From a virus (taxonomy: Duplodnaviria; Caudoviricetes), in IMG/VR virus record IMGVR_UViG_3300037755_000349, positions 8,068 through 72,067 of that record: a stretch of 64,000 bases of DNA; one strand, written 5' to 3'. Below are positions 5,607-62,413 of this stretch, piece by piece. Both the position numbers and the translations under genes were made by a program. Below the pieces are notes generated by a model, which had not been told where the DNA came from, searched no databases, and saw nothing but the letters and a program-made list of their open reading frames with translations. Within the stretch, counting starts at the first letter, position 1; every line of letters starts with the position of its first letter.

Positions 5607-6029
5607 ATGAAGTTCGATCCTCAGTCCTTTCGTGAGCGAGTGGATGCGCTCTTCGATCACGCCGACAACGGCATGCCGAGCGCGTACTTCGAGATCCCCG
5701 ACACGGCGAACGACTGGCAACCGATGCGCGTGCACTATCACGTCATTGCGTTCGCGGCCGAGAGCGCGGACATCGCGGCAGCTCGCGTGTTCCAGGAAGT
5801 GCAGAAGCTGCGCGCCACCGTGCCCGGCCTGGCCTGGCTCTTCTGGCGCAACGATCCGCGCATGACTTCCGAGTTCGACACGAGCACCGAGGGGATGGCC
5901 GAGGCGCAGATCGAGGACATGGAGCCGTGCTGGTTCAGGGTGAGAGTGCGCATTGCCGTGCCGAGAGGCGACTGGACGCAGGTCGAGCACGACCAGACGG
6001 AAGCGACGCGCATCCTGCTGACGGACTGA
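5607..6029 (+). CDS. hypothetical protein
   Basis: AGGGG RBS; coupled to 6029. Confidence 0.6.
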   Translation: MKFDPQSFRERVDALFDHADNGMPSAYFEIPDTANDWQPMRVHYHVIAFAAESADIAAARVFQEVQKLRATVPGLAWLFWRNDPRMTSEFDTSTEGMAEAQIEDMEPCWFRVRVRIAVPRGDWTQVEHDQTEATRILLTD

Positions 6030-6331
6030 TGTTCGCGTCGATCATCAGAGAGCGGCTCCTCGCCGGACTCAATGACGTTTTTGGCATGCAGTACAAGGCA
6101 ACCGAGCGATATCAATTCGGATGGCATAGGGACGCGTGGGCTGGTGCGCTGCCAGTACCGACCTGGGAGCATTGTCTGCTCTGCCATCGAGAGACCCCGC
6201 ATCTCGGCCATTGTGTCTATACAGCTTGGCATCCAAGCGGCAATGGCATCGCCGATCGCATGGAGGCTTACGGGCTCGACATCACGAATCCCGAGCATGT
6301 GCGCGAGTTCTCGGACGCGATGAAAAACTGA
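6029..6331 (+). CDS. hypothetical protein with MCP-like N-terminus
   Basis: TGATG overlap; RERLLAGLNDVFGMQYK. Confidence 0.55.
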   Translation: MFASIIRERLLAGLNDVFGMQYKATERYQFGWHRDAWAGALPVPTWEHCLLCHRETPHLGHCVYTAWHPSGNGIADRMEAYGLDITNPEHVREFSDAMKN

Positions 6332-30473: not shown

Positions 30474-30474
30474 C

Positions 30475-33400
30475 ATGGCAACGAACGAATGGGAGGTCAT
30501 CGGCGAAGAGCCGGATGTACTGCAACCTGCAACACAACCGACTGTAGCGCCGCAGAATGTGTTGCAGGGTGCAGTACAAAATGATTGGGAGGTTCTAGGC
30601 GAGGAGGACCTCACGCCCGATGCACTGCTGCCTGGCGAGGCGTTGAATCTCGCGACAGCGCCCGATGAGCAGTTCGGTCTCGATGAGACACAGCGGAGCA
30701 TGGCGAGTGCACTCACGCGCGCCGGCGCCGATCAAATCATCGACGATGTGGCGAGCCGGGAAATCTTGGCTGCACCGCCGCCGGCGCCTGGCCGTATCGA
30801 GCCCACCGCGCTCACGGCAACGCGCAGATTTCTCCCTGGCGGCAAGCAGATAGCCGAGCCCGTCGATCCGGACGTCGACCTGCGCGCGATGAAGCGCCTG
30901 CCGGGAAATATTGGCCGCAGCTCGAAGGCTCAGGTGAAGGAAGCGATCGCCGGCACACAGCGCCTGTTCGCCGACTTGCAGGCCAACATGGACATCGCGA
31001 AAGCGGAATCGTATCGCTCGTACCAGAGCGACGATCCGCAAGTGCTGGCACAGCAGCAGGCCGCGGCCGGTGAAGCCGAGGAGCGCGCCGGCCACGCGGA
31101 ACTTGCGCAGGGTCGAGCTGCTCGCACGACGCGACGCGCGCAGGCCGAGGGGCAGGCCGCAATCCCCGCCGACGCCGGCGAGATCGAGCGAGCGATCCAA
31201 AGTGGCGTATCGAGCGCGGCGGTGACACTGCCGATCGTGACGCTTGGCTCCGTGGTGCCTGGTGGCCAGGGTGCTGCGCTGGTAACGCTCGGTGGCATGA
31301 CGGGCAGCGCACGCTACGGCGAGCTGCGCGCCGCGGGGCTCGATGAGGGTACGGCGGCGTTGAGCGCAGCAGCGCTCGGTGGCCTCGAAGGGCTCACCGA
31401 GAAAATCCCGTTGGGCACGCTGGCTAAGAAGTCGCCCTTTATCGAGAAGGCCACCGAGTTCCTGGTGCAGGACCTGCTCGGCGAGAACGTGTCCACCGTG
31501 GCGCAGATCGCGGACGACTACCGCCTGGGCCTGCGCGATGACGTGACGATGGCCGACGTGCAGCAAGCCATCAAGGAGACGAGCGCGGCGACGATCGCCG
31601 GCTCCGCCGCGCAGCTCACCGTGTCAGGCATCTTCGAACAGGCCCTCAACCGGGCGAACCAGAAGGCAATCGACCGCGAGGCCAAGGCGGGCATGCAGCG
31701 CCAGGAGCCGTTCATCTCCGAACCCGACCTGGCGGGCATCGGCGAGCTGGAGTACGAGGCGGCGCCGGCTGCTGCCGCGGGCGATCTGGAGGTAGTGGCC
31801 GAGGAACCCCTGGCGGCTGCCCCTGGCAGCGCTCAAGACGAGCTGGCCGCGCTGGAGGCCCTACGCAAGGGCGGAGCCACGCCCGAGCAGGAAGCGATCC
31901 TGGAGGGCCTGGGCCACCTGGTGCGAACCGAGACCGGGACGCCAGTACTACTGCCATCGGGACGGCGTAGACTTACGGAGCTGAATCAACAGCTTGCGGA
32001 TAGTCGCAGTGAAACAAAAAACCAGGCTCTCCCTCAGCCCGTTGCAGCAGGTGCTAAAGAAGCACCTGGATCGGCTCAACCCGGATTGGGCGAAGCGGCC
32101 GGGACCACACCGTCGCTCACAGAAGCAACTCAGGGAGCAGCGCGCGGCGTCCGTGTTGGTCGATCGCCGGCGCCTGGTGGTGAACGACAAGGTGAAAGTG
32201 TTGCTGCTGGAGAAGCCAACCTCGAAGACACGATCCCAATCCCGCAGCAATACGAGCGGGTGATCCTGGAGTCGATCATCAAGGACGACGCGACGCCGGG
32301 GCAGATTGGTATCGCGATATCCCGAGGGTTTGCAAAGCGCCGCTCCGATGGCACCGCGACGCTGTTGCCGGCGGGCCGGCGGCGGCTGGTCGAACTGGAG
32401 TCAGGCCAGCCGCCGGCCGACGTTGAGGCGACGTTTGAGGGCGAGGAGCTGCGCCGAGCTGGCGATCTTCGCCGCACGCCGCGAGTGGAGGTTAAGCCGG
32501 CACAGGCGCGCAGCGGCAGCGTTCAGACGCCGCGTGGCGGCTTCACTGTGCACGTCGATGGCAAGCCGGTCGTCGAGCTTCCCGATGCGCAAGCCGCGCG
32601 CGAGGCCGCGGCCGGATTTGCGGCTGACGGGACTTTTAAGACCACCGTCGCCGGGCAACCCGTGTCGGTCGACGTGACGCCTACGGACGCGCAGAAGGCG
32701 TCCGGCACCTATACCAAGGGTCACATTCGCTACGAGGGTCTCCAGATCTCGATCGAAAATCCCAAAGGCTCTATTCGCTCTGGCGTGTCGGAAAGTGGGA
32801 GAAAGTGGAGCCGTGCGCTTGGAGCTGATTACGGGTACGTGCGCGGTTCCGAATCTGCTGACGGCGATCATGTCGATGTCTTCCTCGGTGATGCGACCAG
32901 CGACGTTGCGTACATCGTCGATCAGGTGAAAGCGGATGGCACTTTCGACGAGCACAAGGTGATGCTCGGCTACCCATCGCTTGAGGCTGCGACCGCAGCG
33001 TATCGAGCACAGTACCCAAAGGGATGGAAGGGACTCGGTGCGATAACCCACATACCGATCGCGGACTTCAAAACGTGGGTGAAGTCTCCACAAGCGAAGC
33101 AACCCTACGCATGGAAACCTAAAGCGCAAGCTGTCGCCGCGGTTCCCTCGGCCGAACCAGCGCCTGAGCGCGCGAAGCTGCACAAGAAGATCTATCGCGG
33201 CACCGAGGCCGGCACGAAAGGAGCCGAAACGCGCGCTGCACCGCGAGGTGAATTGGGGCCGGGCATCTACTTCACGCCGGATGCAAAGCTCGCCGCGAGT
33301 TACGGCGGTGGCCCCACGGCGAGTATCGCGAAGGGCACTCGCGTGGTGCACACCGCGGAGCTGGCGCGCGATCTGAAGGCCGAGGAGATTGGCACACTCG

Positions 33401-36400
33401 AAGGCGGATCTCGCGACGGGGAGACTGCGCGCCTGGTCTCGAATGGCAAGGAGTTGTGGCGCGGCGAGTGGAACGCACGCAAGTCGCAAGAGGCGAACTA
33501 TCAGGCGATGGTGAAGGCGATCAAAGGCGCCGGCCTGAAGATGATCGTGGGCGCCGATGACTCGATCGCAATCAACCAGGTCGCTGTAACAGATCCGAAC
33601 ATTCTGAAATTCGATCAGGCGAAGCTGCACAAGAAACGTCTTCCATTGGAAGAGCGAGCGGATGACGCCTCAGATCAGCAGCGAGCCACGTTGCGCGATA
33701 TCGATACGGCGTCGGTTACTCCGCAATTTCAATTGCGCGCCGCCACGGAGGATGTCTACGACACCGCGGATGCCCACTTCACCTCTTCGGAGGTTTTGAA
33801 GGGCGTTCATGATGTGCCGCTGAAAACTCTTGGCCTCACTGGCTACGACGATGCGAAATCTGTCGCGCGTATCGCGCGCCTGGCCGAGCAGATCAAGGAG
33901 AGCGGCGAGGTCTCGCCGATCATGGTGGGCATCGACCGCAATGGCGAAGCCTACGTGATGGAGGGCCAACATCGAGCGCGCGCGCTGCAACTACTTGGTA
34001 GTGACAGCATCCCGGCGAAAATCGTCTTGGACACGACCGACGACGATGGCGTGCGGCTACATAAGAAACAAACCGAGACTGCCGCATTCAAGAAGTGGTT
34101 CGGCGATAGTAAGGTGGTCGATGCGGACGGCAATCCTCAAGTCGTCTATCACGGCACCGGAAACCTGGAGGGGCTGAACGAATTCCGGCCCGAGCTAACT
34201 GGCCTCGGCAACGATCAAATCGGCAGCGGCTTTTACTTCACGACAAGCCAGGAGGAGGCAAGCGCTTACACAACAGCGCGCATGCCGAACGCAGGAACCA
34301 AGCTCGGCGGTGATCAATCACCAGGCATTGTTCCTGCCTACCTGAGCATCAAGAATCCGATCATCGTAAAAGGCCCCAATCTTCGCGATGTTGATGTGGA
34401 TCTGTCGGCGAAGCAGGTAGAGGCAATTATCCGCCACGCGCCGCGGTTATTCGATGTTGAAAACACGCCGCTTCTTGATTGGCATGAGAATGCGAGCACA
34501 CGCGTTACTCCGGCAATGGTCAGGGATGTAGCAAAGAAATACACCGGCCCGGCGCTTATCCAGATCGAACACGATTTTTTTGGTCGTGAAGGCGAGGCCA
34601 CGAAGTTCCGCGAAGCGCTGCGCAAGGTGCTCGGGTATGACGGCGCGGTGATCGACTTCGGAACGAAGAAGCATTGGGTCGCCTGGTTTCCTGAGCAGAT
34701 CAAAAGCGCGATCGGCAACCGCGGCACGTTCAATCCGAAAGATCCGGATATTCGCTTTCATAATAAGCAGTCCAAAACCGACGCGTTCAGGCGCTGGTTC
34801 GGTGAAAGCAAAATCGTGGACGACGAAGGCAACCCGCTCGTCGTGTACCACGGCACGGGCAGCGACTTCACCGAGTTCCAGCCTACCGATTACGGCTGGT
34901 ATGGGTGGGGTTCTTACTTCACCAGCAACGAAAAATTCGCGAATGAGTTCGCCGAGGGAGCGGACGGCAATCCGAACGTGATGCCGGTGTATCTGGCGAT
35001 CGAGCGGCCTTTCTACTTCACACCGAAGGACAACGACACGCCAACCAACGTGCAGTTGCTCATGGCTGTCGGACACTCACGCCGCAAAGCCGAGAGCATC
35101 ATCAATCGCGAAGGCGACGTGAACGTCCGGGTATTCGACAAGCTGCAAGAGGAGGGGCACGACGGCATTGTCGTGCTCGAACCTGGGCGCACCGAGTACA
35201 TCATCTTCGAGCCATCGCAGATTAAGAGCGCGATCGGTAACACCGGCGCATTCGATCCTGCTAATCCGAACATTCTATTTCACAAGGCTTTCCACGGCTC
35301 GCCGTATCGCTTCCAGAAGTTCGTGCTCGATGACAAGACCATCGGGACCGGCGAAGGCGCACACGCCTACGGATGGGGCCTGTACTTTGCCGAAAACGAA
35401 GCCGTTGCAAAGGACTATCAGCGCCGCCTGTCCGATTCCTCCGCGCATGTGCGCCTGAGCGTGAATGGCAAGGAATTGGAGGACGGACCCGAGCGCCATG
35501 GCGCCAGTCTCGTGGCCTTCAACGATCTGCGCGAGGTGCGCGCACTCGCGAAGCGCTGGCTCGCCGAGTATGAGAACGACCCCGGCATGAAGGAGACGGC
35601 GGAGCACGCCGGCCTAGCCGCGGCGGAGTATTGGCCACGGTTGAACAGCTTCGTGCAAAGCCACACGAAGAGGGACATCAAGGTGGCGCGCGGCTTGCTG
35701 TACAGCGTGGAGATCAACGATGCCGCGGTGAAAAACATGCTGGACTGGGATGTGACGTGGGAATCGCAACTCGACACGGTGAAGGAGACGCTGCGCAAGG
35801 CAGGCGTGTTCAAACGCTACAAGGCGAACCTGAGCAACTACGGCACGCCCATGCAAACGCGCAATCGCAAGATGCGCGGGGAGAGCATCTACGCGTTCCT
35901 GAGCATGGAGAAGGGCGGCGACCAAGCGGCCTCGAAGTATCTCTCCTCGCTCGGCATCCACGGCCTGCGATACAAGGACGAAGGATCGAGAGGCAAACGC
36001 GGCGGCACACGCAACATCGTGGTGTTCGACGACTCGATCATCACTGTGACGCACATCGATGGCTCGCCGGTCACGGCGCAGGAGCGCACCGATGCGATCG
36101 GTCCGCTGTTCAGCCGCGTCAACACCAACGCGAATGAGAGCAGGTATCGCGCGATCACGGGCACACCCCGCGAGCAGCGCTCCGCGCAAGTGCGCACGGA
36201 AGTGAACCGCGTGCTGCGCAACTTCCCCGGCGCATCGGCCAACGTGGTGCAGACTTTCAACGAGCTGCCCAACGACGTGCGCGCGCGTGTGATCGCCGCC
36301 GGCGGCCTCGATGAGAAAGGCAACCCCGCGGTCGATGCGTTCTACGACCCGCCAACCGGCCAGGTGTATTTCATCGCGAACGAGATCGAGTCGATCGACA

Positions 36401-39400
36401 GCATCGAGTCGTTGTTCCTGCACGAGTATGTCGCGCACAAGGGCCTGGTCGGCATGCTCGATACGGCAAAGCGTGACGAAATTCTCAACGGCATTGCACG
36501 CGACCTGCCCGACCTGGTGCGGCAGAAGGCGGCCGATTACGGCTATCGCTTTCACGTTCCTGCTGAACGACGAGTCGCGGCCGAGGAGGTCGTCGCTGAG
36601 ATGGCGGAGACTTTCTTGCGAGGTCGGGATCTGCCGGCGAAGCAGAAGGGTATTCTCGATCGCATAATTCAGGCGATCGCTGATGTCTTGCGGCGCATAG
36701 GTCTGCGCAAATACGACGAGCAATTCATCGCCTCGTTACTCACGGATCTGCACCGCTATGCGCGCGAAGGCCATGCTCGGAAGGAAACCGCTGAGCCGTA
36801 TCGCGCACGCGCAAGTACGGCCCCTGCGTTCCCTGATTGGGATGATTCGAACGCCTCCGAGGTCGTCCCCAACTTCCAGGACTATGTGGATCGCGCGCGC
36901 CTGCATCTCTCCGGGAAGAGTGAAGAGGAGATCTATTCCTATGCGCTGAAGCAGTTCGACGAACGGCAACAGCTCTGGCAGTGGGAGGGATTCTTCGAGG
37001 GCGGGCACGTCCTTGTGCGCGGGACACAGGCCGGTGGCTACGATCTCTACGTCAACGATGCGCTCATCGTCCCGGATGACGGCGGAAACTACCCGAACCT
37101 ACAGCTCGCACAAGCGGCAGCTCGGGTACTCGTGGCGGAGGAGGGTGGAGTCTCCGACGCCGAGGCTGAGCGCATCCTCAACGCAGTGCCATTAAGCGCG
37201 GACCTGCGCGTCAAGTTCCATCGTAAACCGTTCTTCTCGCAGCTCGCCGTGCGGCTGTCGGAGCTGCGCCTACAGAAGGCGCCGGCGTCCCAGTGGCGCG
37301 GCGTCATCGCGAACCTCACCGGCAAGGGCGTGAGCCCCGAAGAGATCGAGTGGCTCGGGATCAACGAGTGGCTCGCCGAGCAGGATGGCAAGGTCACGAA
37401 GGAGCAGGTACTGCAATACGTGCGCGCCAACCAAGTGCAGATCCAAGAGGTCGTGAAGAGCGCCTTTACCAAGGAAACCATTGACGAGGCAGTCACTGCT
37501 ATTGACCGCGCTCTCGGCACTTTTACGGACTGGATCACGCCTGGTGATCTTGATTATTACGATCGCGTCGAGCCGTCCGTCGATAAGGATAAGTTCACGA
37601 CCTATGCTCGTACCGCAAAGGGCGAGCGCATCGACATGACCGTGAAAGTCACAGACGTGGATTCCCAAGATTGGAACGATGGCGGATGGGTTAACGCGAC
37701 CGTCACTCTCGCAGATGGTCGCAGCGCGGAGGCCGGCGCATGGTTCAGTTATCGCCGCGGCACCCTTGAGATTGATCCTTATGGGCTTGGCGAGTGGCGC
37801 GGTGATGAATTCTCAGAGGATGAGGTTGATGCTATCAAAGAGGCAATCGGCGAGATCGCCTTGTCCGAAAACACAGAGCTAATGGACACTGTCCAACACG
37901 CCTCGGACGAATTCGATAGCGATCTTATAAGAGCAAGAAACGAACTTTTGAGTGGCGACGTGGAGGCGGCTATTTCTGCACTTAAAGACGCGGCCCGCAC
38001 AGAGCGCGTATACGGCGATGATGTAACCGTTAGCCCGATTGTAGATCTACTCACCGAGGATGAGGGATCTATCAAGTATGAAGACTGGAAGCTACCGGGC
38101 GGCGAGAATTATCGCGAACTGTTGCTGACGCTGCCGCCAAAGAAAGATCTGCCGGAGGAATTCAAGGCGGTGGAGATAGGCGAAGGCCGATGGGCCGTGT
38201 TCGGTCCTGGCCCGCAAGGCGCGAATCGATACGGTTCCGGCACCACGCGCGAGGAAGCGATCGAATCCTTCGTCGGTCACGGCCACACCGGGGCGTTCAT
38301 CTCAAAGCACTGGGCCGAGCCGAACATCCTCGCTCACGTGCGCTTCGATGAGCGCACCGACGCTGATGGCAAGCGCGTGCTGTTCATTGAGGAGATACAG
38401 AGCGATTGGCATCAAGCCGGCCGCAAGCACGGATACAAAGGCGACTATGTTCCGCCGTCCACGGCTGATATCGAGCGGTACAACGAACTGCGCGCAAAGA
38501 GGGACATCACCAACACGGAAGATGCAGAGCTGACCAAGCTGGAGAAGCTGATACGCCAGCACGATGACATGATCGCTAGACTGGTGCCGGATGCTCCCTT
38601 TAAAACATCATGGCCCGAGTTGGCGTTCAAGCGCATTTTGAAATGGGCTGTCGATGAAAACTTCGATCGCGTGACGTGGACCACCGGCGCGCAGCAGGCA
38701 GATCGATATGATCTGAGTAAAAAAGTAAAAGCGATCGAGTACACGGCCTCGGGTCGGTTGATTGCCATGGGCATAAGTGGCAGTCCGGTAATGAATGAGG
38801 CGGTCCCAGAAGAAAAAATCGCTGACTATGTTGGCGAAGAGCTTGCCAAGAAGTTACTCGAACAACCCTTAGTTAAGGCAGGACCAGTGCACAGTCGTGT
38901 GTTGCGCGATGTGGATTTGAAGATGGGCGGCGAGGGCATGGTTGAGTTCTACGACCAGATGCTGCCGCGCATCGCCGTCAAACTCACGAAGAAGTGGGGT
39001 GGCCGAGCATCGAAGACAAAGCTGCGCGGTGTCACTCGCGAAGAGCGGATCAACGATCGCTACCAGATCCGCGAGACCTCCGCGGGCTGGACGCTGCTCG
39101 ACGCGGCCGGCAATCCGCTTGCTGATCGACGCGCCTTCCGCAACGGGGCGGCGGCCGAGAAGTGGCTGGAGGAGAACGGCTACCTCGATGAGGAGGTTCA
39201 CTCGCTGGATATCACCGACGACATACGCGAGGTCGCGCTCGGCGGCCTGCCGATGTTCCATCGAAAGTCCATGGTCGGCGTGTTCCGCCGGCGCCAGGCG
39301 GTGCAGAACGGCACCTTTGACCTGGTCGAAGGGTCGCGCACCTCGCGCTGGTGGAACCTCCTGGTCTTCAAGGCGCAGGACCGTTTCTACGATCTGTTCC

Positions 39401-42207
39401 GGCTCAACGAGCAGGCGAAGATCTTCCGCCAGATCGCGCAGCTCCCCGACTCGATGGACGCGTACCTGAAGGAGACGCTCTACCATGGTCGCGTAGAGGA
39501 TCGCGTCAAAGAGTACGAGAAGCAGTTCGTCGAGCCACTGGTGAAGATGATCAAGGACTCCGGCTATACCTGGCAGCAGGTGGAGGATTACCTGTACGCG
39601 CGGCACGCGCCCGAGGCGAACGCGAGGCTCCTCACGATCAACAACGGGAATCCGAACTTCCATTCCGGTATGACGGACGCCGAGGCCACGCAGGTGATGA
39701 CGGCGCTCGGCGCTGCGGGCAACATCGCGAACCTGCAAGCGATCGGCGCTCATGTCGATGCAATGACGCAGTGGGAGCGCTCCACGCTGGTGCTGGAGGG
39801 CCTCGAAGACCAGGCCACCATCACCGAGTGGGAGAACACCTATGATCACTACGTCCCGCTCAAAGGGTGGGCGCACAACCCTGAACTTGCTGAAATGCCT
39901 CGTCGAGGCCGAGGCTTTGATACTGGTGGTCGGACAACAAAAGACCGCACTGGCCGCACGTCTCGTGCGGGAAACATCCTCGCCAACATCGTCGCGCAAG
40001 CGCAGATGGCCGTCATCCGCGCGGAGAAGGCCAAAGTAGGCCGGGCGCTGCTGGAGTTCGTGAAAGCGAACCCGGCGCCGCGGCTATACGAGGTCAACCA
40101 GGTCGAGTACCACCGCTACATCGACTCGGGCACGGGCCTGGTGCGCCAGGGCGTGAACCCGCAGTACAAGCTCGCCGACAACGTGGTGCGCGTGCGCATG
40201 GCCGGCAAGGATGAGCACATCGTGTTCAACCCCAACGAGCCGCAGATGCAGCGCCTGGCGACCGCGATGAAGAACCTCTCGGCCACCGAGATGGGCCTGA
40301 TCCTGTCGTTCCTGCACGGGATCAACCGCTACCTCTCGACGATCAACACCTCGCTGAATCCCGAGTTCGTGATCTCCAACGCGCTGCGTGACTTGCAGAC
40401 CGCTGGCATCAACTTGCAAAGCACCGACCTGAAGGGCCAGGCGCTCGCGATCATGAGCCAGTGGCGCCATGCCTGGAAGGCGATCCGTCAGGCCGAAGCC
40501 GGCAACACGACGCACGCGTGGGCGCCGTGGTGGGATCGCTTCAAGAAGGCCGGCGCGAAAACCGGGTGGATTCAGCACTACGGCACGCCGGTGGACATCG
40601 AGAAAAAACTTCAAAAGGAAATCAACCGGCACGGTGTGGTGGGCAACGCGGCCAAGGGGATCGAGGTGACGCTCGGCTGGATCGAGCGGCAGAACCTGGC
40701 GGTCGAGAACGCCATGCGTCTGGCCGCCTTCCGGGCTGCTGTCGAGGCTGGCATGTCGGACGAGCGCGCCGCGCAGATCGCGAAGAATCTCACCGTGAAC
40801 TTCAACAAGCGCGGTGACCTGGGTATTGCACTGAACTCGTTCATCCTGTTCTACAACGCCGGCGTGCAGGGCACGGCAACGATCCTGCGTGCAGCAAAGA
40901 GCCCGCGGGCGCGCAAGTTCATGTATGGCCTGGTCGCGGCTGGCATCGTCATCGACATCATCAATCGCATGGTGGCGGGCGAGGACGATGATGACGAGAA
41001 CCGCTACGACAAGATCCGCAGCTACGAGAAGGAGCGCAACATCATCGTGATGCTGCCGAAGGAGCAGCGCTTCACGCTGCCATCGGGCGATGAGATCGAT
41101 CACCTGAAGATCCCGATGCCCTACGGGTACAACTTTCTGTACTACACCGGAACGAAGATCGGCGGCGTGCTCGACTATCACACCATCGGCAACAAGCGCC
41201 GCTTCGAGCCGGCCGAAGATGCCGCGCAGGTGGTGGCCTCGTTCTTGGGCGCATTCAACCCGATCGGTGGGTTCGCCAATCCACTGGAGTCGATCACGGC
41301 GGTGGAGCAGTACATCCAACTGAAAGAAGAGCGAGCGTGGGACGGCCGCCCGCTCATGCCACCACAGCCGCAGTACGACATTCCGGTGCCGGACTCGCAA
41401 CGCTTCTGGCGGTCCACCGGCAAGGGTGCGCGCGAGGTCACGGCTTGGCTCAACGAGCACACCGGTGGCACCGACGTAACGCCGGGCAAGATCGACATCT
41501 CGCCGGCGACGGTGGATTACTGGATTGACTTCGCCCTCGGTGGCAGCGGCCGGTTCATCTCCAACACGATCAATGCGACGCACGATATCGCGCTTGATCG
41601 CAAGGACCTGGACCTGGGCGAGGTGCCCTTCGTGCGCCGCGTGCTCGGGCAGACCGGGGAGCGCGATCGCCAGGAGCGGTTCTACACGCGCATGAACGAA
41701 GTGCAGTACGTGATCAAGGAGCGCGAGGTCGCGCGCGAGATGCGCCGCTTCGCGAAGACGCCCGAGGAGATGCAGCCCTACGAGGAGCGCAACGCATTCA
41801 TCGATAAGCGCTACCCGATCGCGGCCAAGGTGGAGATGGAAGGCCGGCGCGCGGAGGCCAAGCTCAAGCAGCTCCGAGCTGGACGCAAGGCGCTCCAGAA
41901 ACAGGAGGGCCGCATGGAGGAGAGCAAGCGGCTGGAGCGCATCGAGTCGATCGAGGCGGAGATGCGCGCCACGATGGACCAGTTCAATCGCTCCTGGAAC
42001 GAGGCCGAGGACGCACAGCGCGGCGCCACCGAGACGAAGGATCTGATCGGCCAGCTCGGACCGATCATCGACGGCAAGAACCGCCGCGACGCCGTGCGTG
42101 CGTTGCGTGAGGCGGGCAAGCCGGCGACAGCCGAGCTGCTCGCGGCACTGCCGACCACGCTTCGCACGCAGCTCCGCGAGCTGCTGGAGCAGGAAGCCGC
42201 CTCATGA
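30475..42207 (+). CDS. giant polyvalent ejection protein (~3910 aa): PPase-like, ParB-like, about four ART-like modules, HExxH-type peptidase, LPD38-like C-terminus (tentative)
   Basis: IENPKGS.R...DYGY...ADGDHVDVF..DEHKVMLG; EGQHRA.AL; F.KWFG.SK.VD..G.P.VVYHGT..G.GFYFT; FHGSP..G.GEG..AYGWGLYF; LHEYVAH. Confidence 0.85.
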   Translation: MATNEWEVIGEEPDVLQPATQPTVAPQNVLQGAVQNDWEVLGEEDLTPDALLPGEALNLATAPDEQFGLDETQRSMASALTRAGADQIIDDVASREILAAPPPAPGRIEPTALTATRRFLPGGKQIAEPVDPDVDLRAMKRLPGNIGRSSKAQVKEAIAGTQRLFADLQANMDIAKAESYRSYQSDDPQVLAQQQAAAGEAEERAGHAELAQGRAARTTRRAQAEGQAAIPADAGEIERAIQSGVSSAAVTLPIVTLGSVVPGGQGAALVTLGGMTGSARYGELRAAGLDEGTAALSAAALGGLEGLTEKIPLGTLAKKSPFIEKATEFLVQDLLGENVSTVAQIADDYRLGLRDDVTMADVQQAIKETSAATIAGSAAQLTVSGIFEQALNRANQKAIDREAKAGMQRQEPFISEPDLAGIGELEYEAAPAAAAGDLEVVAEEPLAAAPGSAQDELAALEALRKGGATPEQEAILEGLGHLVRTETGTPVLLPSGRRRLTELNQQLADSRSETKNQALPQPVAAGAKEAPGSAQPGLGEAAGTTPSLTEATQGAARGVRVGRSPAPGGERQGESVAAGEANLEDTIPIPQQYERVILESIIKDDATPGQIGIAISRGFAKRRSDGTATLLPAGRRRLVELESGQPPADVEATFEGEELRRAGDLRRTPRVEVKPAQARSGSVQTPRGGFTVHVDGKPVVELPDAQAAREAAAGFAADGTFKTTVAGQPVSVDVTPTDAQKASGTYTKGHIRYEGLQISIENPKGSIRSGVSESGRKWSRALGADYGYVRGSESADGDHVDVFLGDATSDVAYIVDQVKADGTFDEHKVMLGYPSLEAATAAYRAQYPKGWKGLGAITHIPIADFKTWVKSPQAKQPYAWKPKAQAVAAVPSAEPAPERAKLHKKIYRGTEAGTKGAETRAAPRGELGPGIYFTPDAKLAASYGGGPTASIAKGTRVVHTAELARDLKAEEIGTLEGGSRDGETARLVSNGKELWRGEWNARKSQEANYQAMVKAIKGAGLKMIVGADDSIAINQVAVTDPNILKFDQAKLHKKRLPLEERADDASDQQRATLRDIDTASVTPQFQLRAATEDVYDTADAHFTSSEVLKGVHDVPLKTLGLTGYDDAKSVARIARLAEQIKESGEVSPIMVGIDRNGEAYVMEGQHRARALQLLGSDSIPAKIVLDTTDDDGVRLHKKQTETAAFKKWFGDSKVVDADGNPQVVYHGTGNLEGLNEFRPELTGLGNDQIGSGFYFTTSQEEASAYTTARMPNAGTKLGGDQSPGIVPAYLSIKNPIIVKGPNLRDVDVDLSAKQVEAIIRHAPRLFDVENTPLLDWHENASTRVTPAMVRDVAKKYTGPALIQIEHDFFGREGEATKFREALRKVLGYDGAVIDFGTKKHWVAWFPEQIKSAIGNRGTFNPKDPDIRFHNKQSKTDAFRRWFGESKIVDDEGNPLVVYHGTGSDFTEFQPTDYGWYGWGSYFTSNEKFANEFAEGADGNPNVMPVYLAIERPFYFTPKDNDTPTNVQLLMAVGHSRRKAESIINREGDVNVRVFDKLQEEGHDGIVVLEPGRTEYIIFEPSQIKSAIGNTGAFDPANPNILFHKAFHGSPYRFQKFVLDDKTIGTGEGAHAYGWGLYFAENEAVAKDYQRRLSDSSAHVRLSVNGKELEDGPERHGASLVAFNDLREVRALAKRWLAEYENDPGMKETAEHAGLAAAEYWPRLNSFVQSHTKRDIKVARGLLYSVEINDAAVKNMLDWDVTWESQLDTVKETLRKAGVFKRYKANLSNYGTPMQTRNRKMRGESIYAFLSMEKGGDQAASKYLSSLGIHGLRYKDEGSRGKRGGTRNIVVFDDSIITVTHIDGSPVTAQERTDAIGPLFSRVNTNANESRYRAITGTPREQRSAQVRTEVNRVLRNFPGASANVVQTFNELPNDVRARVIAAGGLDEKGNPAVDAFYDPPTGQVYFIANEIESIDSIESLFLHEYVAHKGLVGMLDTAKRDEILNGIARDLPDLVRQKAADYGYRFHVPAERRVAAEEVVAEMAETFLRGRDLPAKQKGILDRIIQAIADVLRRIGLRKYDEQFIASLLTDLHRYAREGHARKETAEPYRARASTAPAFPDWDDSNASEVVPNFQDYVDRARLHLSGKSEEEIYSYALKQFDERQQLWQWEGFFEGGHVLVRGTQAGGYDLYVNDALIVPDDGGNYPNLQLAQAAARVLVAEEGGVSDAEAERILNAVPLSADLRVKFHRKPFFSQLAVRLSELRLQKAPASQWRGVIANLTGKGVSPEEIEWLGINEWLAEQDGKVTKEQVLQYVRANQVQIQEVVKSAFTKETIDEAVTAIDRALGTFTDWITPGDLDYYDRVEPSVDKDKFTTYARTAKGERIDMTVKVTDVDSQDWNDGGWVNATVTLADGRSAEAGAWFSYRRGTLEIDPYGLGEWRGDEFSEDEVDAIKEAIGEIALSENTELMDTVQHASDEFDSDLIRARNELLSGDVEAAISALKDAARTERVYGDDVTVSPIVDLLTEDEGSIKYEDWKLPGGENYRELLLTLPPKKDLPEEFKAVEIGEGRWAVFGPGPQGANRYGSGTTREEAIESFVGHGHTGAFISKHWAEPNILAHVRFDERTDADGKRVLFIEEIQSDWHQAGRKHGYKGDYVPPSTADIERYNELRAKRDITNTEDAELTKLEKLIRQHDDMIARLVPDAPFKTSWPELAFKRILKWAVDENFDRVTWTTGAQQADRYDLSKKVKAIEYTASGRLIAMGISGSPVMNEAVPEEKIADYVGEELAKKLLEQPLVKAGPVHSRVLRDVDLKMGGEGMVEFYDQMLPRIAVKLTKKWGGRASKTKLRGVTREERINDRYQIRETSAGWTLLDAAGNPLADRRAFRNGAAAEKWLEENGYLDEEVHSLDITDDIREVALGGLPMFHRKSMVGVFRRRQAVQNGTFDLVEGSRTSRWWNLLVFKAQDRFYDLFRLNEQAKIFRQIAQLPDSMDAYLKETLYHGRVEDRVKEYEKQFVEPLVKMIKDSGYTWQQVEDYLYARHAPEANARLLTINNGNPNFHSGMTDAEATQVMTALGAAGNIANLQAIGAHVDAMTQWERSTLVLEGLEDQATITEWENTYDHYVPLKGWAHNPELAEMPRRGRGFDTGGRTTKDRTGRTSRAGNILANIVAQAQMAVIRAEKAKVGRALLEFVKANPAPRLYEVNQVEYHRYIDSGTGLVRQGVNPQYKLADNVVRVRMAGKDEHIVFNPNEPQMQRLATAMKNLSATEMGLILSFLHGINRYLSTINTSLNPEFVISNALRDLQTAGINLQSTDLKGQALAIMSQWRHAWKAIRQAEAGNTTHAWAPWWDRFKKAGAKTGWIQHYGTPVDIEKKLQKEINRHGVVGNAAKGIEVTLGWIERQNLAVENAMRLAAFRAAVEAGMSDERAAQIAKNLTVNFNKRGDLGIALNSFILFYNAGVQGTATILRAAKSPRARKFMYGLVAAGIVIDIINRMVAGEDDDDENRYDKIRSYEKERNIIVMLPKEQRFTLPSGDEIDHLKIPMPYGYNFLYYTGTKIGGVLDYHTIGNKRRFEPAEDAAQVVASFLGAFNPIGGFANPLESITAVEQYIQLKEERAWDGRPLMPPQPQYDIPVPDSQRFWRSTGKGAREVTAWLNEHTGGTDVTPGKIDISPATVDYWIDFALGGSGRFISNTINATHDIALDRKDLDLGEVPFVRRVLGQTGERDRQERFYTRMNEVQYVIKEREVAREMRRFAKTPEEMQPYEERNAFIDKRYPIAAKVEMEGRRAEAKLKQLRAGRKALQKQEGRMEESKRLERIESIEAEMRATMDQFNRSWNEAEDAQRGATETKDLIGQLGPIIDGKNRRDAVRALREAGKPATAELLAALPTTLRTQLRELLEQEAAS

Positions 42208-58454: not shown

Positions 58455-59138
58455 ATGCAAGAAGAACTCTTCCGACTCCTCTCGACGGCGTACAAGAAAC
58501 ACCTCAACGCAACAATCCAGGCGTTAGATATCACTCGCGATCCCGCCGCCGATTCCATCGTGGACGCACCGGCCGGCGTCGACGTGACACCAGAGCGTCC
58601 CGGCCCCTTCGAGGTGCTTACTAGGCTGTCGCTGGAGACGCGCGAGGAGCAGCTCGCGTTCCTGGCGCGCCACGAGGATGCCGAGCGCAACTTCGAGAAG
58701 TTGAACCTCGATCGCACTCGGCTCGGACACATCCGCGAGGATGGGTTCCGCGTCGCTCAGGAGAAGCGGGCGAAGACGGAGAACCCGTATATGCCGGTCA
58801 CGATCGAGCATATCTTCTGGTATCGCGGCTGGTGCCAGGGGATGAACGTGTTCCCGATCACCGAGATCCCGATGCGGGATGTGTTCGAGCTGGATCGGCC
58901 GGTGACGCGATTCAAGGCGAAGTTTCGGATCGACGAGCTACTGAACAAATGCGCAGAAAAAATACTAAGCGTCGAGTATCCGGAGGTTCGGTGGTCGAGC
59001 ATGAGCGATCTGTCGAAGAAGCCGTACCTGCTGAAGGCGGTAGCGTTTCTGGAGGCGATGATGGATCGTGCGCCGTTGGCGCTGACCCATTCGGCGGATG
59101 GTGGGGGCGAATCGTTGCAGTCGTCCGTCTCCGACTGA
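58455..59138 (+). CDS. hypothetical protein
   Basis: 227-aa ORF with phage-like codon use. Confidence 0.6.
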   Translation: MQEELFRLLSTAYKKHLNATIQALDITRDPAADSIVDAPAGVDVTPERPGPFEVLTRLSLETREEQLAFLARHEDAERNFEKLNLDRTRLGHIREDGFRVAQEKRAKTENPYMPVTIEHIFWYRGWCQGMNVFPITEIPMRDVFELDRPVTRFKAKFRIDELLNKCAEKILSVEYPEVRWSSMSDLSKKPYLLKAVAFLEAMMDRAPLALTHSADGGGESLQSSVSD

Positions 59139-59413
59139 TCAAGTGGCTCGCGCAGCACGACGTGGTGCTGGTGAATGCCAGCATCCGCGGCGTGGTCACG
59201 ATCAACGTGAAAGATCGGCCCGTCGTGCGGGTTATCGGGATCAATGGCAAGATCACGCCAACGCCGGACTTCCAGCCATCCAGGCAATACCAAGGCAACA
59301 CCTTGCACTGATGCGCAACATTCAGGCAATATCCTGCCCCATGCGCCAGGGGAACAAAGACGAGCGATAGGGTCTTCCGATTCCGTCCCCCTGCTGCGCA
59401 CGGAGATGGAGCT

Positions 59414-59605
59414 ATGTTCAGAGCCACCTTGATCGTCCGGAAGCCTGGCGGCGAGATCGCGCAGATCGTTGATCTGTCGAGCCTCGATGACGCCAACGTG
59501 ACCGCGCAGGTGAATGCCTTGCGCGCTCGGTTCCCGGTCGACTACAAGATCGACGAGAGCCAGGTTGAAGCCGCTCGCGCCGCATGGAGGGCGCGCGCTG
59601 CGTAA
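59414..59605 (+). CDS. hypothetical protein
   Basis: GGAG RBS; last ORF before the RNA array. Confidence 0.55.
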   Translation: MFRATLIVRKPGGEIAQIVDLSSLDDANVTAQVNALRARFPVDYKIDESQVEAARAAWRARAA

Positions 59606-59661
59606 AAGATAGCAGCTCCTTGAACGGACGGAGAGCGTGGGGCGTCCGAAAGGTTCGATGT

Positions 59662-59791
59662 GGCGTGGTGAAAGAGGTGGGGTACTTCGCCTGTTAAGCG
59701 GGAAACGTCGGTTCGAATCCGGCCGGCGCCTTCGGGTGCTGTCGTCTAGTGGTAGGACGCCTTATAGCTCCCTGTCTCGCCTGTTCCCGCC
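59662..59791 (+). ncRNA. Y-RNA-like (Yrl) permuted tRNA mimic, unit 1
   Basis: GGCG/CGCC terminal helix; anticodon-like arm CGC-CTGTTAA-GCG; T-arm GTCGG-TTCGAAT-CCGGC; 7-bp acceptor-like stem closed by TTCG; D-arm GTCT-AGTGGT-AGGAC. Confidence 0.85.
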
Positions 59792-59802
59792 CGATGATTT
59801 GA

Positions 59803-59953
59803 TTGCGCGTGGTGAAAGAGATCGGTTACTTCACAACCTAGAGGTCACGGGTTCGATCCCCGTCGTCGCTGGATCGGGCGGCGTAGCTCAGTTGGTAGAG
59901 CGCAAGGCAGTAGCCCTTAACTGGGCAAACCGGTTTCGCCTGTTCCCGCGCAA
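59803..59953 (+). ncRNA. Y-RNA-like permuted tRNA mimic, unit 2
   Basis: TTGCGCG/CGCGCAA; 10-bp GAGATCGGTT/AACCGGTTTC; T-arm ACGGG-TTCGATC-CCCGT; closed acceptor stem; D-arm TA-GCTC-AGTTGGTA-GAGC. Confidence 0.88.
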
Positions 59954-59964
59954 GTGATTTGGAT

Positions 59965-60083
59965 GATCGTGGTGATAGAGGTCGGTTACTTCGCTTTTGC
60001 AAGCGACGATGGGGTTCGATTCCCTACCACCGCGCAACGGTGGACCAGGCGGTAGTCAACGCCGATCTCGCCTGTTCCCGATC
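59965..60083 (+). ncRNA. Y-RNA-like permuted tRNA mimic, unit 3
   Basis: GATCG/CGATC; GAGGTCGG/CCGATCTC; arm TCGC-TTTTGCAA-GCGA; T-arm TGGGG-TTCGATT-CCCTA; CCACCG/CGGTGG; degenerate D-arm. Confidence 0.82.
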
Positions 60084-60091
60084 GACGATGT

Positions 60092-60236
60092 GACGTGGTG
60101 ATAGATCGCGAGTTCTTCGCAAGAGGTTGCAGGTTCGAATCCTGTCGGTTGTACCGCAAGGTTCCCAACCGATAGCCCTGGCATCGCGAATGCGGTGATT
60201 GGCTCCAGGGCACACGCGCGGTCGCCAGTTCCCGTC
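60092..60236 (+). ncRNA. Y-RNA-like permuted tRNA mimic, unit 4
   Basis: GACG/CGTC; GATCGCG/CGCGGTC; T-arm GCAGG-TTCGAAT-CCTGT; CGGTTG/CAACCG; GCCCTGG/CCAGGGC. Confidence 0.78.
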
Positions 60237-60284
60237 CAACAAGAATTACATGCGGCGTGGTATTCCCGCCAAAGGAGAGCGACG

Positions 60285-61709
60285 ATGAAGACGAACACGA
60301 AGCGCAAGGCAGTCCCGCCGAAGCGTAATGTCAACGCACGAACTCACGAGGGCGCCCCGGCCGACGCGGCGCCGGCATACATGGAGCTGCGCCGCTCCGT
60401 GCTCTCGTGCATGCTATGGGAAAATGAGTTCTACGAGTCAGGCTCGCAGATCGCGTTGCGGGTGAAGGAGCTTTGCCACCGCGTGACGGCCGACCAGCTC
60501 GCGAACCTCGCGATCAAGGCACGCATCGATTACAAGCTGCGGCACATGCCGCTGTACTTGGCGCGCGAGCTGGTGCGCCATAAGGACGCGGGTCCGAACA
60601 TCGTGGCCGGCACGATCGAGCGCGTCATTCAGCGCGCCGATGAGCTGGCCGAGTTCATGGCGATCTACTGGAAAGAGGGTAAGTGCCCGATCGCCAATGC
60701 CGTGAAGCGTGGCCTGGGCCGCGTCATCAGTAATTTTGATTCGTACCAGCTCGCGAAGTACAACCGCGATAATGCGGTGGCGCTGCGCGACGTGCTGTTC
60801 ATGGTGCACGCCAAGCCGAAGGATATCGGCGATCGCAAGGGCAAGAAGGCCAAGGCGATTGCACGCAAGGGATACAAGCGCGGGGCAACGATGCGGCACA
60901 AGACGCCGCAGGCCATTTCCTACCAGCAGCTCGCCGACGATGAACTGCCGACGCCGGACACCTGGGAGACGAACCTCTCCGGCGGGGCCAACAAGAAGGA
61001 AGTCTTCGAACGCCTGTTGAGCGAGAACAAGCTCGGCTACATGGCGTTGCTGCGTAACCTGCGCAACATGGAGGAGGCGCAAGTCGATCGCCGGTTGATC
61101 GTGCAGCGATTGCGCGAAGGGGCGCCGAAGTCGAAGGCGTTGCCGTTCCGGTTCATCGCCGCCGCGGTGCATGCGCCGCGCTTCGAGGATGTGCTCGATG
61201 AGTGCATGCTGTTGAGCCTGGGCGCGATGGACAAGTTGTCTGGCCGCACGGTGCTGCTGATCGACAACTCCGGCTCGATGTACCAGGAGAAGATCTCGGC
61301 GAAGTCGGAGCTGACTCGCGCGCAGGCAGCGCAGGCGCTGGCTGTCATGGCGCGGGAGATCTGCGAGGAGGTGGTGATCTATGCCTTCTCGAACAAGTGC
61401 GAGCTGGTGCCGCCGCGGCATGGCATTGCCCTGGCGAACGCGGTGCGTGACGCCACCACGCACGGCGGCACGGCCACCGGCGACGCGTTGCGCCTTCTCA
61501 ACGAGAAGGAAGACTACGATCGCATCATCATCTTCACGGACGAGCAGACGAACGACGTGCTCGGCAAGCCGAAGAACGAAGCGGTCGGGTACATCATCAA
61601 CGTCGCATCGAACCAGTACGGGATCGGTGGCGGCAACTTCGTGAAGATCGACGGCTTCTCGGAGCAGGTCCTGCGCTTCATCTCGGTCGTCGAGGCTGGC
61701 GGAGAGTGA
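60285..61709 (+). CDS. rsr: Ro60/TROVE-domain RNA-binding protein (TROVE + vWA)
   Basis: AAAGGAG RBS; THEG..., LRR.VLSCMLWE..FYESG, I.RADEL, F..YQLAKY, TWET.LS, GYMALLRNLRNM, LPFRF; vWA DNSGSM...GGT...FTDEQ. Confidence 0.95.
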   Translation: MKTNTKRKAVPPKRNVNARTHEGAPADAAPAYMELRRSVLSCMLWENEFYESGSQIALRVKELCHRVTADQLANLAIKARIDYKLRHMPLYLARELVRHKDAGPNIVAGTIERVIQRADELAEFMAIYWKEGKCPIANAVKRGLGRVISNFDSYQLAKYNRDNAVALRDVLFMVHAKPKDIGDRKGKKAKAIARKGYKRGATMRHKTPQAISYQQLADDELPTPDTWETNLSGGANKKEVFERLLSENKLGYMALLRNLRNMEEAQVDRRLIVQRLREGAPKSKALPFRFIAAAVHAPRFEDVLDECMLLSLGAMDKLSGRTVLLIDNSGSMYQEKISAKSELTRAQAAQALAVMAREICEEVVIYAFSNKCELVPPRHGIALANAVRDATTHGGTATGDALRLLNEKEDYDRIIIFTDEQTNDVLGKPKNEAVGYIINVASNQYGIGGGNFVKIDGFSEQVLRFISVVEAGGE

Positions 61710-61858
61710 ATTACGCGCACGGTGGGGATGGGTGACCGCCGTGCGGAGAGTGCCGAGGAGCAACCCAAGGCTTCGCGTGGATCAGGGTTAGATCTCCCTG
61801 GGTTATGCGTAGTACGGCCCGCCGCCTTTCCCTACGACGGTCAGCGGCGGGAGTCTTT

Positions 61859-61933
61859 GCCCCTGTAGCTCAGTCGGCAGAGCACTAGGCCCTTCAAGCC
61901 TGGAGGTCGAGAGTTCGATTCTTTCCGGGGGCG
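61859..61933 (+). tRNA. atypical tRNA (Glu-like, TTC) with anticodon arm enlarged by 2 nt
   Basis: GCCCCTG/CGGGGGC acceptor, GCTC/GAGC D-stem, CTAGGC-CCTTCAA-GCCTGG arm, AGGTC variable loop, GAGAG-TTCGATT-CTTTC T-arm; followed by CCCA. Confidence 0.8.
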
Positions 61934-62065
61934 CCCATGACAGCAGCAGCAATGAACACAGGCAGGCGGTGGGCACGTCGATGTACGGGGGATTGTTGCT
62001 GGTTCCTGCCCGGCGATCCGCACTGGGCAAATCACTGTGTTTTCTGTGGTCACCAAAGTGAGGTA

Positions 62066-62413
62066 ATGTCGATGTCGATCAAACTTGAACCTGTTCAGTC
62101 CAGCAACCTGGCCGCGATCGGCTATGACGCCGCCGGCGCGCTGCTCATTGTCGTATTCAGCAACGGCGCGAAGTGGAAGTACGAGGGCGTGCCGGCTGAA
62201 GTGCACCAGGCGCTGATGAACGCCGAGAGCAAGGGCCGCTTCTTCCACACCGACATCAAGCCGAAGTACTCGGCCACGCAGTATGTTGATCAGGCGGCCG
62301 AAGTTGCCGCGGCCTCAACCGACCAGGTGGTCGACGCTCAAGCGCCGGCGGAGGACTCGATCTCCGGAGAAGAGGTCGCGCTCCAGGGATCGACGGAGAC
62401 TACTACCGGATGA
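62066..62413 (+). CDS. KTSC-domain protein
   Basis: GAGGT RBS; PVQSSNL.AIGYD.....V.F.NG..W.Y.GVP..VH..LMNA.SKGRFF...IK. Confidence 0.88.
   Translation: MSMSIKLEPVQSSNLAAIGYDAAGALLIVVFSNGAKWKYEGVPAEVHQALMNAESKGRFFHTDIKPKYSATQYVDQAAEVAAASTDQVVDAQAPAEDSISGEEVALQGSTETTTG

Follow-up and report, generated by a model that had tools for sequence, protein, structure and literature searches.

What are the four similar, closely spaced blocks of sequence that precede a Ro60 gene in the genome of a tailed phage (Caudoviricetes)? They occupy positions 59662-60236 (+ strand) of a 64-kb stretch of DNA, here termed the window, which comprises bases 8068-72067 of a 72,067-base-pair (bp) IMG/VR virus record (IMGVR_UViG_3300037755_000349); the whole genome was also scanned. 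The ends of the record are direct terminal repeats and the genome was judged complete, with the blocks close to its right end. In our assessment, the blocks are very probably non-coding Y RNA-like (Yrl) RNAs of the YrlA class, four in number, that partner the Ro60 protein whose gene lies 48 nucleotides (nt) further downstream, with the docking, processing and tether model that is proposed below.

The first step concerns the protein. The downstream gene product scored 69.6 bits against the Pfam TROVE domain (cut-off 23), 31.8 bits against VWA_2 and 27.7 bits against vWA_Ro60. Its closest solved relative is the Ro60 of Thermus phage phiLo (9KOP, 9L5Y), matched over residues 16-473 (E = 3.5e-21), and it was also related to Rsr of Deinococcus radiodurans (E = 2.8e-5). 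Judged by its sequence, the gene is a true Ro60, and its product is the presumed protein partner of the four Yrl RNAs.

The second step concerns the blocks themselves (Table 1). Exact matches to TGGTGAWAGA occurred only four times in the 64 kb, at 59666, 59810, 59970 and 60096, all on the + strand; with one mismatch allowed, there were 11 matches in the window compared with 3.75 expected, a number that no shuffle reached. GCCWGTTCC was found at 59779, 59938, 60070 and 60224, plus two unrelated sites (1.05 expected). Minimum-energy folds of units 2, 3 and 4, together with a slightly adjusted fold of unit 1, gave a common architecture: a terminal helix of 4-7 variable pairs, a bulged U, two invariant G-C pairs (the final CC of the 3′ strand pairing with the GG of the 5′ strand), an asymmetric internal loop (made of UGAWA in the 5′ strand and GCCWGUU in the 3′ strand), a second helix and a multi-branch distal module. 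The terminal stems keep their pairing while their sequence differs from unit to unit (GGCG/CGCC, TTGCGCG/CGCGCAA, (T)GATCG/CGATC(G) and GACG/CGTC in units 1-4), and the second helix is likewise paired over 7-10 bp in each unit with a different sequence in all four. It is followed by TACTTC in units 1-3 and TTCTTC in unit 4.

In the predicted folds, the distal module is a complete YrlA-type mimic of transfer RNA (tRNA) in units 1 and 2, has a decayed D arm in unit 3 and carries a long hairpin in place of the D arm in unit 4. T arms are canonical throughout (loops UUCGAAU, UUCGAUC, UUCGAUU and UUCGAAU in units 1-4, each containing the YrlA elbow motif UUCRA), and a D-loop GG is present in units 1 and 2 only. 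Unit 1 combines an anticodon-arm-like hairpin, a T arm, a 7-bp acceptor stem closed by a UUCG loop and a D arm; its hairpin, which occupies the position of the YrlA variable region, has a 5-bp stem and a 7-nt loop with U at the U33 position, GUU, and A at 37. Only unit 1 is anticodon-like in this respect, the loops ahead of the T arm in units 2-4 being 8-nt loops or tetraloops. Unit 2, with a 7-bp terminal stem, is the most YrlA-like of the four, and its minimum-energy fold reproduces the YrlA-type architecture (z = -2.4). In unit 3, the D-like stem (GGCG/CGCC) lacks a GG loop and shares 2 nt with the second helix.

Table 1. Features of the Yrl array and the Ro60 gene, in window positions; unit lengths include the full terminal helices, and R2 is the covariance model described in the text.
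Feature	Window positions	Strand	Remarks
Yrl unit 1	59662-59791	+	130 nt; R2 68.2 bits, E 2.7e-14
Yrl unit 2	59803-59953	+	151 nt; R2 72.8 bits, E 2.2e-15
Yrl unit 3	59964-60084	+	121 nt; R2 57.7 bits, E 8.2e-12
Yrl unit 4	60092-60236	+	145 nt; R2 35.5 bits, E 1.5e-6, D-arm region skipped
Spacers	59792-59802; 59954-59963; 60085-60091	+	11, 10 and 7 nt
Presumed Ro60-binding module, 5′ strand	59666-59675; 59810-59819; 59970-59979; 60096-60105	+	U-GG-UGAAAGA in unit 1; units 1-4 in order
Presumed Ro60-binding module, 3′ strand	59779-59787; 59938-59946; 60070-60078; 60224-60232	+	GCCUGUUCC in unit 1; units 1-4 in order
Unit 1 anticodon-arm-like hairpin	59686-59702	+	UUCGC-CUGUUAA-GCGGG
Unit 1 tRNA-like core	59707-59759	+	T arm 59707-59723; closed acceptor-like stem 59724-59741; D arm 59742-59759 (loop UAGUGGUA)
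Unit 2 hairpin, T arm and acceptor stem	59828-59845; 59847-59863; 59864-59883	+	acceptor stem 7 bp, closed
Unit 2 D arm and extra hairpin	59886-59901; 59913-59926	+	UA linker, then canonical D arm (GCUCAGUUGGUAGAGC)
Unit 3 hairpin, T arm, acceptor stem and D-like stem-loop	59991-60006; 60010-60026; 60027-60043; 60048-60063	+	hairpin with UUGC loop; acceptor stem 6 bp, closed; D-like stem-loop degenerate
Unit 4 hairpin, T arm and acceptor-like stem	60115-60126; 60129-60145; 60146-60171	+	GCAA-tetraloop hairpin; acceptor-like stem branched
Unit 4 hairpin in place of the D arm	60176-60210	+	35 nt
Ro60 gene	60285-61709	+	474 amino acids, ATG at 60285; TROVE ring and vWA domain

Are these folds conserved? 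A covariance model built from ten aligned long units of related loci, with the window left out (R2), picked out these four units and no further whole unit, whether in the window or across the 72-kb genome (E = 2e-15 to 1.5e-6). The only two other R2 matches at E ≤ 1 were short and partial (14.8 and 11.3 bits; E = 0.12 and 0.78) and lay on tRNA genes of the window. A second model made from 12 short units of relatives (R1) was also tried on the window; it found none of the units with default filters and gave misaligned matches of 7-11 bits with the filters off, likely because of the apical-loop insertions of 70-100 nt, and was replaced by R2 for this purpose.

In an alignment of 48 long units from 24 sources, standard pairs filled 97.0% of the cells, compared with 45-50% when the partners were slid by 1-3 columns, and 22 of 24 pairs showed compensatory changes on both sides; the observed values were reached by none of 500 shuffles. 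This alignment was fitted to the model, which favours structure, and MAFFT-based results agree with it. The 12 short units align cleanly, with compensatory changes in 14 of the 15 consensus pairs of the terminal and second helices and with the GG:CC pair kept in every sequence (12/12, with one GC:GC swap). At the level of sequence, these comparisons show the four RNAs to be conserved structures and members of one family.

A preliminary description of this DNA had recognized four tandem units with these motifs directly upstream of a phage Ro60 gene, and had attributed to them terminal stems that differ yet pair, a co-varying second helix and a shared Ro60-type scaffold with differing distal modules. 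All of this is borne out by the exact motif positions, the R2 matches, the folds, the family models and the position of the TROVE and vWA gene on the same strand, and the covariation of the terminal helix that it expected among homologues is present in the 48 long and 12 short units. Its dimensions require small corrections (spacers of 7-11 nt, given as 8-11; lengths of 121-151 nt with full helices, given as 119-151), and its permuted order of T arm, acceptor stem and D arm is evident in units 1 and 2, only weakly so in unit 3 and not present in unit 4, where the 35-nt hairpin stands instead.

How are such units distributed? Related loci with a Ro60 protein (individual loci carry L numbers below) comprised 24 viral loci and 57 loci of bacterial genomes (mostly Acidobacteriaceae; also Caulobacter, Hoeflea and others), plus cultured phages. 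Their units share a consensus of stem, YGGYGWAG, second helix, GGTTACTTC, and then GCYTGTTCC with the closing stem, and are either short (62-75 nt, no tRNA part) or long (T arm, acceptor-like stem and D arm). Variants of the 5′ motif among them include GGCGAAG, which is the exact published form (L009, L002), as well as GGUGAAG, GGUGUAG and GGCGUAG. In BLASTN comparisons of the four window units with these relatives, only unit 1 had a long specific match (a 38-nt stretch 92% identical to L037 and L053), the others matching via the T and D arms alone.

Whole-genome scans with R2 placed every strong match beside Ro60: 2/2 in Caulobacter (5.6 Mb), 3/3 in Hoeflea (7.8 Mb), 4/4 in phage Olaya and 5/5 in phage Kikimora. 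In phage CcrColossus, eight matches were beside Ro60, with three weak matches elsewhere. This linkage repeats, for the present clade, the criterion by which Chen et al. defined YrlA RNAs. In addition, viral contigs were scanned with the pattern GGTTACTTC, gap, GCYTGTTCC, giving more than 118 stretches, mostly chance matches, of which 80 were examined; a Ro60 homologue was found in 18 of these, always on the same strand and at a median distance of 230 nt, whereas R1 matched only 4 of the 62 others. The same scan was rejected as an estimate of prevalence, since most of its matches are due to chance.

With R1 and R2 combined, related viral contigs contained one (2 loci), two (10), three (3) or four (4) units per locus. 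Xanthomonas phage Olaya has four units, with one further short unit visible in a spacer; Brevundimonas phage Kikimora has five and Caulobacter phage CcrColossus eight, and acidobacterial arrays have 5-8 (e.g., eight in L059 and seven in L037). A four-unit array is therefore ordinary for the clade, and the rarity implied by the preliminary description is not upheld, as sets of 2-8 such RNAs adjoin related Ro60 genes across many phages and bacteria. Only two features of the window array are peculiar, namely that all of its units are long and that its spacers are very short.

Other loci differ in layout. The array of L016 (4356-4767) and one unit of L025 are downstream of Ro60, and tRNA genes separate the array from Ro60 in L013 (three of them) and L023. 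Genuine tRNA genes adjoin Yrl arrays or Ro60 in several viral contigs (L013 2703-2933, L023 2766-2838, L017 4556-4829, L025 6830-7340). One long unit of L018 (2811-2973) has a terminal helix of about 23 bp, compared with the usual 4-7 bp. In Kikimora (L084), a permuted transfer-messenger RNA (5852-6197; Rfam RF04321, 57.7 bits, cut-off 47) lies about 2 kb downstream of Ro60, beside a tRNA-Cys.

To which known RNA family do the units belong? At relaxed thresholds, unit 2 aligned over the full length of the Rfam YrlA model (RF02553; 32.8 bits, E = 1.4e-4), and unit 1 matched it in part (20.7 bits). In this search with YrlA and tRNA models, which had been suggested beforehand, both YrlA alignments lie far below the gathering score of 69 bits. 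We file the units as YrlA-like, not as members of RF02553, because the clade is outside the reach of the curated model. ARAGORN called a tRNA-Asn at 59658-59733, which corresponds to the 5′ half of unit 1, and the Rfam tRNA model matched this unit only, at 27.6 bits compared with a cut-off of 29 and with the D arm missing from the alignment. With a score under the cut-off and acceptor-like stems that are closed by loops, the features of a transfer RNA are lacking, and the ARAGORN call is a false positive. Similar miscalls of Yrl 5′ halves were obtained for about 14 relatives, and one unit of L037 passes the Rfam tRNA cut-off.

The same confusion is visible in public records. A GenBank tRNA-Ser of Kikimora (ON529857.1; L084 2277-2351) overlaps a Yrl unit found by R2, and a tRNA-Gln and one predicted terminator of CcrColossus (NC_019406.1; L085 1078-1145 and 1005-1020) lie inside such units; these features are probably misannotations. 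The Ro60 genes of both phages are labelled only 'RNA-binding protein', and the label 'hypothetical protein' also occurs among the Ro60 genes of cultured phages.

Y RNAs are modular in other lineages as well. In D. radiodurans Yrn1 and in metazoan Y RNAs, Ro60 binds a bulged helix formed by the two ends of the RNA, and the rest of the molecule serves as gate and tether (Rsr and PNPase in the case of Yrn1); animals have 2-4 Y RNAs per genome. The window RNAs may resemble these in their bulged helix, although Yrn1 has the arms of its tRNA-like part in the opposite order and metazoan Y RNAs have no tRNA-like domain. Close counterparts are the unannotated arrays of CcrColossus, Kikimora and Olaya, which belong to the same R2 family (27-130 bits), are placed upstream of Ro60 and have a similar mix of modules, including the CUGUUAA hairpin type. 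Unlike the window, these three arrays mix short and long units and have spacers of 12-60 nt.

YrlA-like RNAs near Ro60 have been described in 254 bacteria and 22 phages, with two Y RNAs each in Salmonella and Mycobacterium smegmatis and more said to await discovery (Chen et al. 2014, PMC4201824). As with YrlA and YrlB of Salmonella Typhimurium and M. smegmatis (RF02553), the window RNAs are on the same strand beside Ro60/Rsr (within the criterion of about 4 kb) and have a terminal helix, whose purine-rich motif is a variant of the GNCGAA type. In units 1 and 2, the arms of the distal domain are ordered as in YrlA (T arm, closed acceptor stem, D arm), the D arm of unit 2 being joined by a UA linker, and both units have a 7-bp acceptor-like stem, a feature that permits cleavage of M. 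smegmatis YrlA by RNase P. More than one Y RNA per locus is normal for YrlA loci too, although the window has four tandem copies rather than two. Other differences are that the clade of the window conserves the 3′ strand (GCYUGUUCC) and UUACUUC, whereas just the 5′ strand can be recognized in the Salmonella and M. smegmatis RNAs, and that unit 1 has an anticodon-like hairpin, unlike Salmonella YrlA. The structure of YrlA has been described as tRNA mimicry without an anticodon loop, with an origin from dimeric tRNA transcripts cited (bioRxiv 10.1101/312249).

Among phages, the Ro60 of phiLo was shown in vitro to bind, in gel-shift assays, a pair of Yrl RNAs encoded upstream of it and to form complexes with the PNPase of the host (PMC12135203). 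The window shares with it a phage Ro60 and Y RNA-like genes directly upstream; phiLo differs in having two RNAs of stem-bulge-stem form with a CGAA motif, for which no tRNA-like domain is reported, and a thermophilic host, the RNAs being likened here by description. In a survey of jumbo phages, TROVE proteins accompanied by a tRNA-like partner are noted as platforms for RNA repair. The occurrence of Y RNAs at phage Ro60 loci is thus already published (PMC4201824, PMC12135203); a description of arrays of 4-8 units was not found in the accessible literature, although an earlier one is possible, as two reviews fell outside it.

We propose that the terminal helix, with its bulged U, GG:CC pairs and UGAWA/GCCWGUU internal loop, would be the docking site for Ro60. 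These elements are invariant in all units, including the short ones, which fits a protein docking site; the 5′ strand carries a variant of the motif published as Ro60-associated. The second, covarying helix bears a distal module built around a tRNA T arm. The four RNAs would come from one precursor, probably including the Ro60 messenger RNA (mRNA), and be cut in the A/U-rich spacers. A single precursor, as also envisaged in the preliminary description, is the economical reading because spacers of 7-11 nt offer no space for promoters of individual units. A GAT(G)/ATTTG-type A/U-rich stretch is present in all three spacers and in the 8 nt preceding unit 1, similar U-rich spacers are seen in relatives, and these stretches are likely processing sites. 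By analogy with characterized Y RNAs, each RNA may then gate the Ro60 ring and tether Ro60 to a host enzyme that binds tRNA or degrades RNA, such as PNPase. The differing distal modules, which fit the known modular gate-and-tether logic of Y RNAs, would give one phage Ro60 several specificities during infection.

Several points weigh against this interpretation. The published Ro60-associated motif is GNCGAAN0-1G on the 5′ strand of the stem formed by the RNA ends (PMC4201824), and the window motif departs from it, reading GGUGAAAG in units 1 and 2 and GGUGAUAG in units 3 and 4, with U for C in all four units and U for A in units 3 and 4. The YrlA gathering score was reached by no window unit, nor by any unit in 38 related loci. 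A consensus scan found no promoter upstream of unit 1. In the present phage, we infer Ro60 binding, co-transcription, processing and tether function. Moreover, an 11.3-kb viral contig (L102, 4986-5226, minus strand) contains two units matched by R1 (55.2 and 36.5 bits) with no detectable Ro60 in the stretch; these could be Y RNA-like genes that lack a neighbouring Ro60, or the contig could be too short. The next large gene on the strand of the L102 units encodes a terminase large subunit.

Could the tRNA-like modules do something more specific? One alternative is that some array members, here unit 1, are near-complete mimics of particular tRNAs rather than generic tRNA-shaped tethers. While bound to Ro60, the RNA would expose a specific anticodon loop for an enzyme to read at U33-G34-U35, for instance the transglycosylase that inserts queuosine or an anticodon nuclease specific for GUN, and would serve as a sensor, a decoy or a guide. 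The order of parts in unit 1 under this reading would be anticodon arm (Asn-type loop), variable loop, T arm, closed acceptor stem and D arm. Canonical anticodon-like hairpins were found in 36 of 135 T-arm-bearing units of relatives, where they precede a 4-5-nt variable loop of AGGUC type; 14 of the 36 have GUN triplets, compared with about two expected at random. The CUGUUAA loop of unit 1 recurs in phages Olaya and CcrColossus, in L017 and in four acidobacterial loci; L037 and L053 are among these. Such hairpins in relatives fit the model of an origin from dimeric tRNAs and leave room for specific mimicry, which we nonetheless consider unlikely. If it were true, the arrays would be panels of anticodon-loop specificities.

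Closely allied is the idea, raised in the preliminary description, that the modules are decoys that bait host tRNA-cleaving defence nucleases or tRNA-modifying enzymes and so shield the tRNAs of phage and host, with Ro60 only stabilizing the baits. The hairpin of unit 1, the counts in relatives and their GUN triplets speak for it, as do units that are tRNA-like enough to deceive ARAGORN and GenBank annotators and the frequent proximity of tRNA genes to Yrl arrays. On the other hand, the anticodon-like loop is present in only one of the four window units, and the hairpin counts of relatives are not phylogenetically independent. A family search of the whole genome detected neither RtcB nor RNA ligases, and therefore no phage-encoded RNA-repair partner, that might indicate a context of tRNA damage. 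What is invariant across units, including many short ones without a tRNA part, is a Ro60-type helix and not a tRNA mimic. We found the decoy proposal unsupported and judge it rather improbable, and the two readings taken jointly are no more probable than that.

A different possibility is that the four structures are the 5′ untranslated region of the Ro60 mRNA and control Ro60 translation or stability in cis, instead of being free RNAs. The array does end 48 nt short of the Ro60 start codon, and no terminator intervenes; in a consensus scan of 59000-62200, no promoter or terminator was found on the + strand, the inside of the array included. A 17-nt mini-hairpin at 60254-60270 (GGCG-U-GG-UAUU-CC-CGCC), which copies the terminal helix of unit 1 minus its interior (R1 score only 7.9 bits), abuts the AAAGGAG ribosome-binding site, and through it Ro60 could regulate its own translation. 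However, no counterpart of the mini-hairpin was found upstream of Ro60 in 80 related loci. Like free Y RNAs, each unit has ends of its own that close it through a helix; relatives place units downstream of Ro60 (L016, L025) or tRNA genes between array and Ro60 (L013, L023), and the studied homologues are free, Ro60-bound RNAs (PMC4201824, PMC12135203). We regard a leader function as very unlikely. Finally, the notion that the units are degenerate or permuted tRNA genes, or tRNA pseudogenes from duplication, unconnected with Ro60, can draw on the ARAGORN call, the Rfam tRNA match to unit 1 and the canonical T arms in all four units, but is extremely unlikely given that the match is under the tRNA cut-off, that a loop-closed acceptor-like stem has no free CCA end, that the covarying pairs are Y RNA helices joining the two ends of each unit and that strong family matches in whole-genome scans occur only beside Ro60.

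The region downstream of Ro60 has features of its own. An 8-bp, GC-rich hairpin at 61818-61851 (CCCGCCGC ... GCGGCGGG; 18-nt loop, weak AGUCUUU tail) lies between Ro60 and a tRNA gene and may be a weak terminator or processing signal. The tRNA gene (61859-61933) follows Ro60 at a distance of 150 nt and scores 54.1 bits in Rfam; its acceptor, D and T arms are canonical, but its anticodon arm is enlarged and can be folded in two ways, with a 6-bp stem and the loop CCUUCAA (anticodon UUC, C at 33) or with a 5-bp stem and a 9-nt loop. The gene is one of two tRNA genes in the window, which are the sole Rfam matches at curated thresholds. Its 3′ end reads G-CCC, with the ATG of the next gene following directly. 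That gene (61937-62413) encodes a KTSC-domain protein (Pfam, 73.9 bits); the name KTSC derives from the C-terminal domain of lysyl-tRNA synthetase. The genes neighbouring the array, including this one, had no homologues in the flanks of the 80 related loci, and there is therefore no conserved third component.

Elsewhere, the genome encodes a DnaB-like helicase, a RusA-like resolvase, a virion structural protein and a multidomain protein of 3,922 amino acids. The open reading frame of the latter (30439-42207) matches giant phage proteins (phrog_14770, E = 6e-182) and has DarB-like antirestriction, endolysin-like and ParB-like segments; its product is probably a polyvalent ejected protein.

The reading of the interval as Yrl RNAs that partner Ro60 makes this locus a clean and complete example, with one Ro60 gene and exactly four partner RNAs in a 72-kb genome bounded by direct terminal repeats. 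The picture at the level of the family is more useful than the single locus: the two-strand docking motif is sharply conserved, and arrays of 2-8 differentiated RNAs are common. The clade is missed by the Rfam YrlA model at its curated threshold, and its units are miscalled as tRNA genes by tRNA finders and in GenBank records. It also occurs, without annotation, in cultured phages whose hosts are tractable; in CcrColossus on Caulobacter crescentus, for example, its function is genetically testable.

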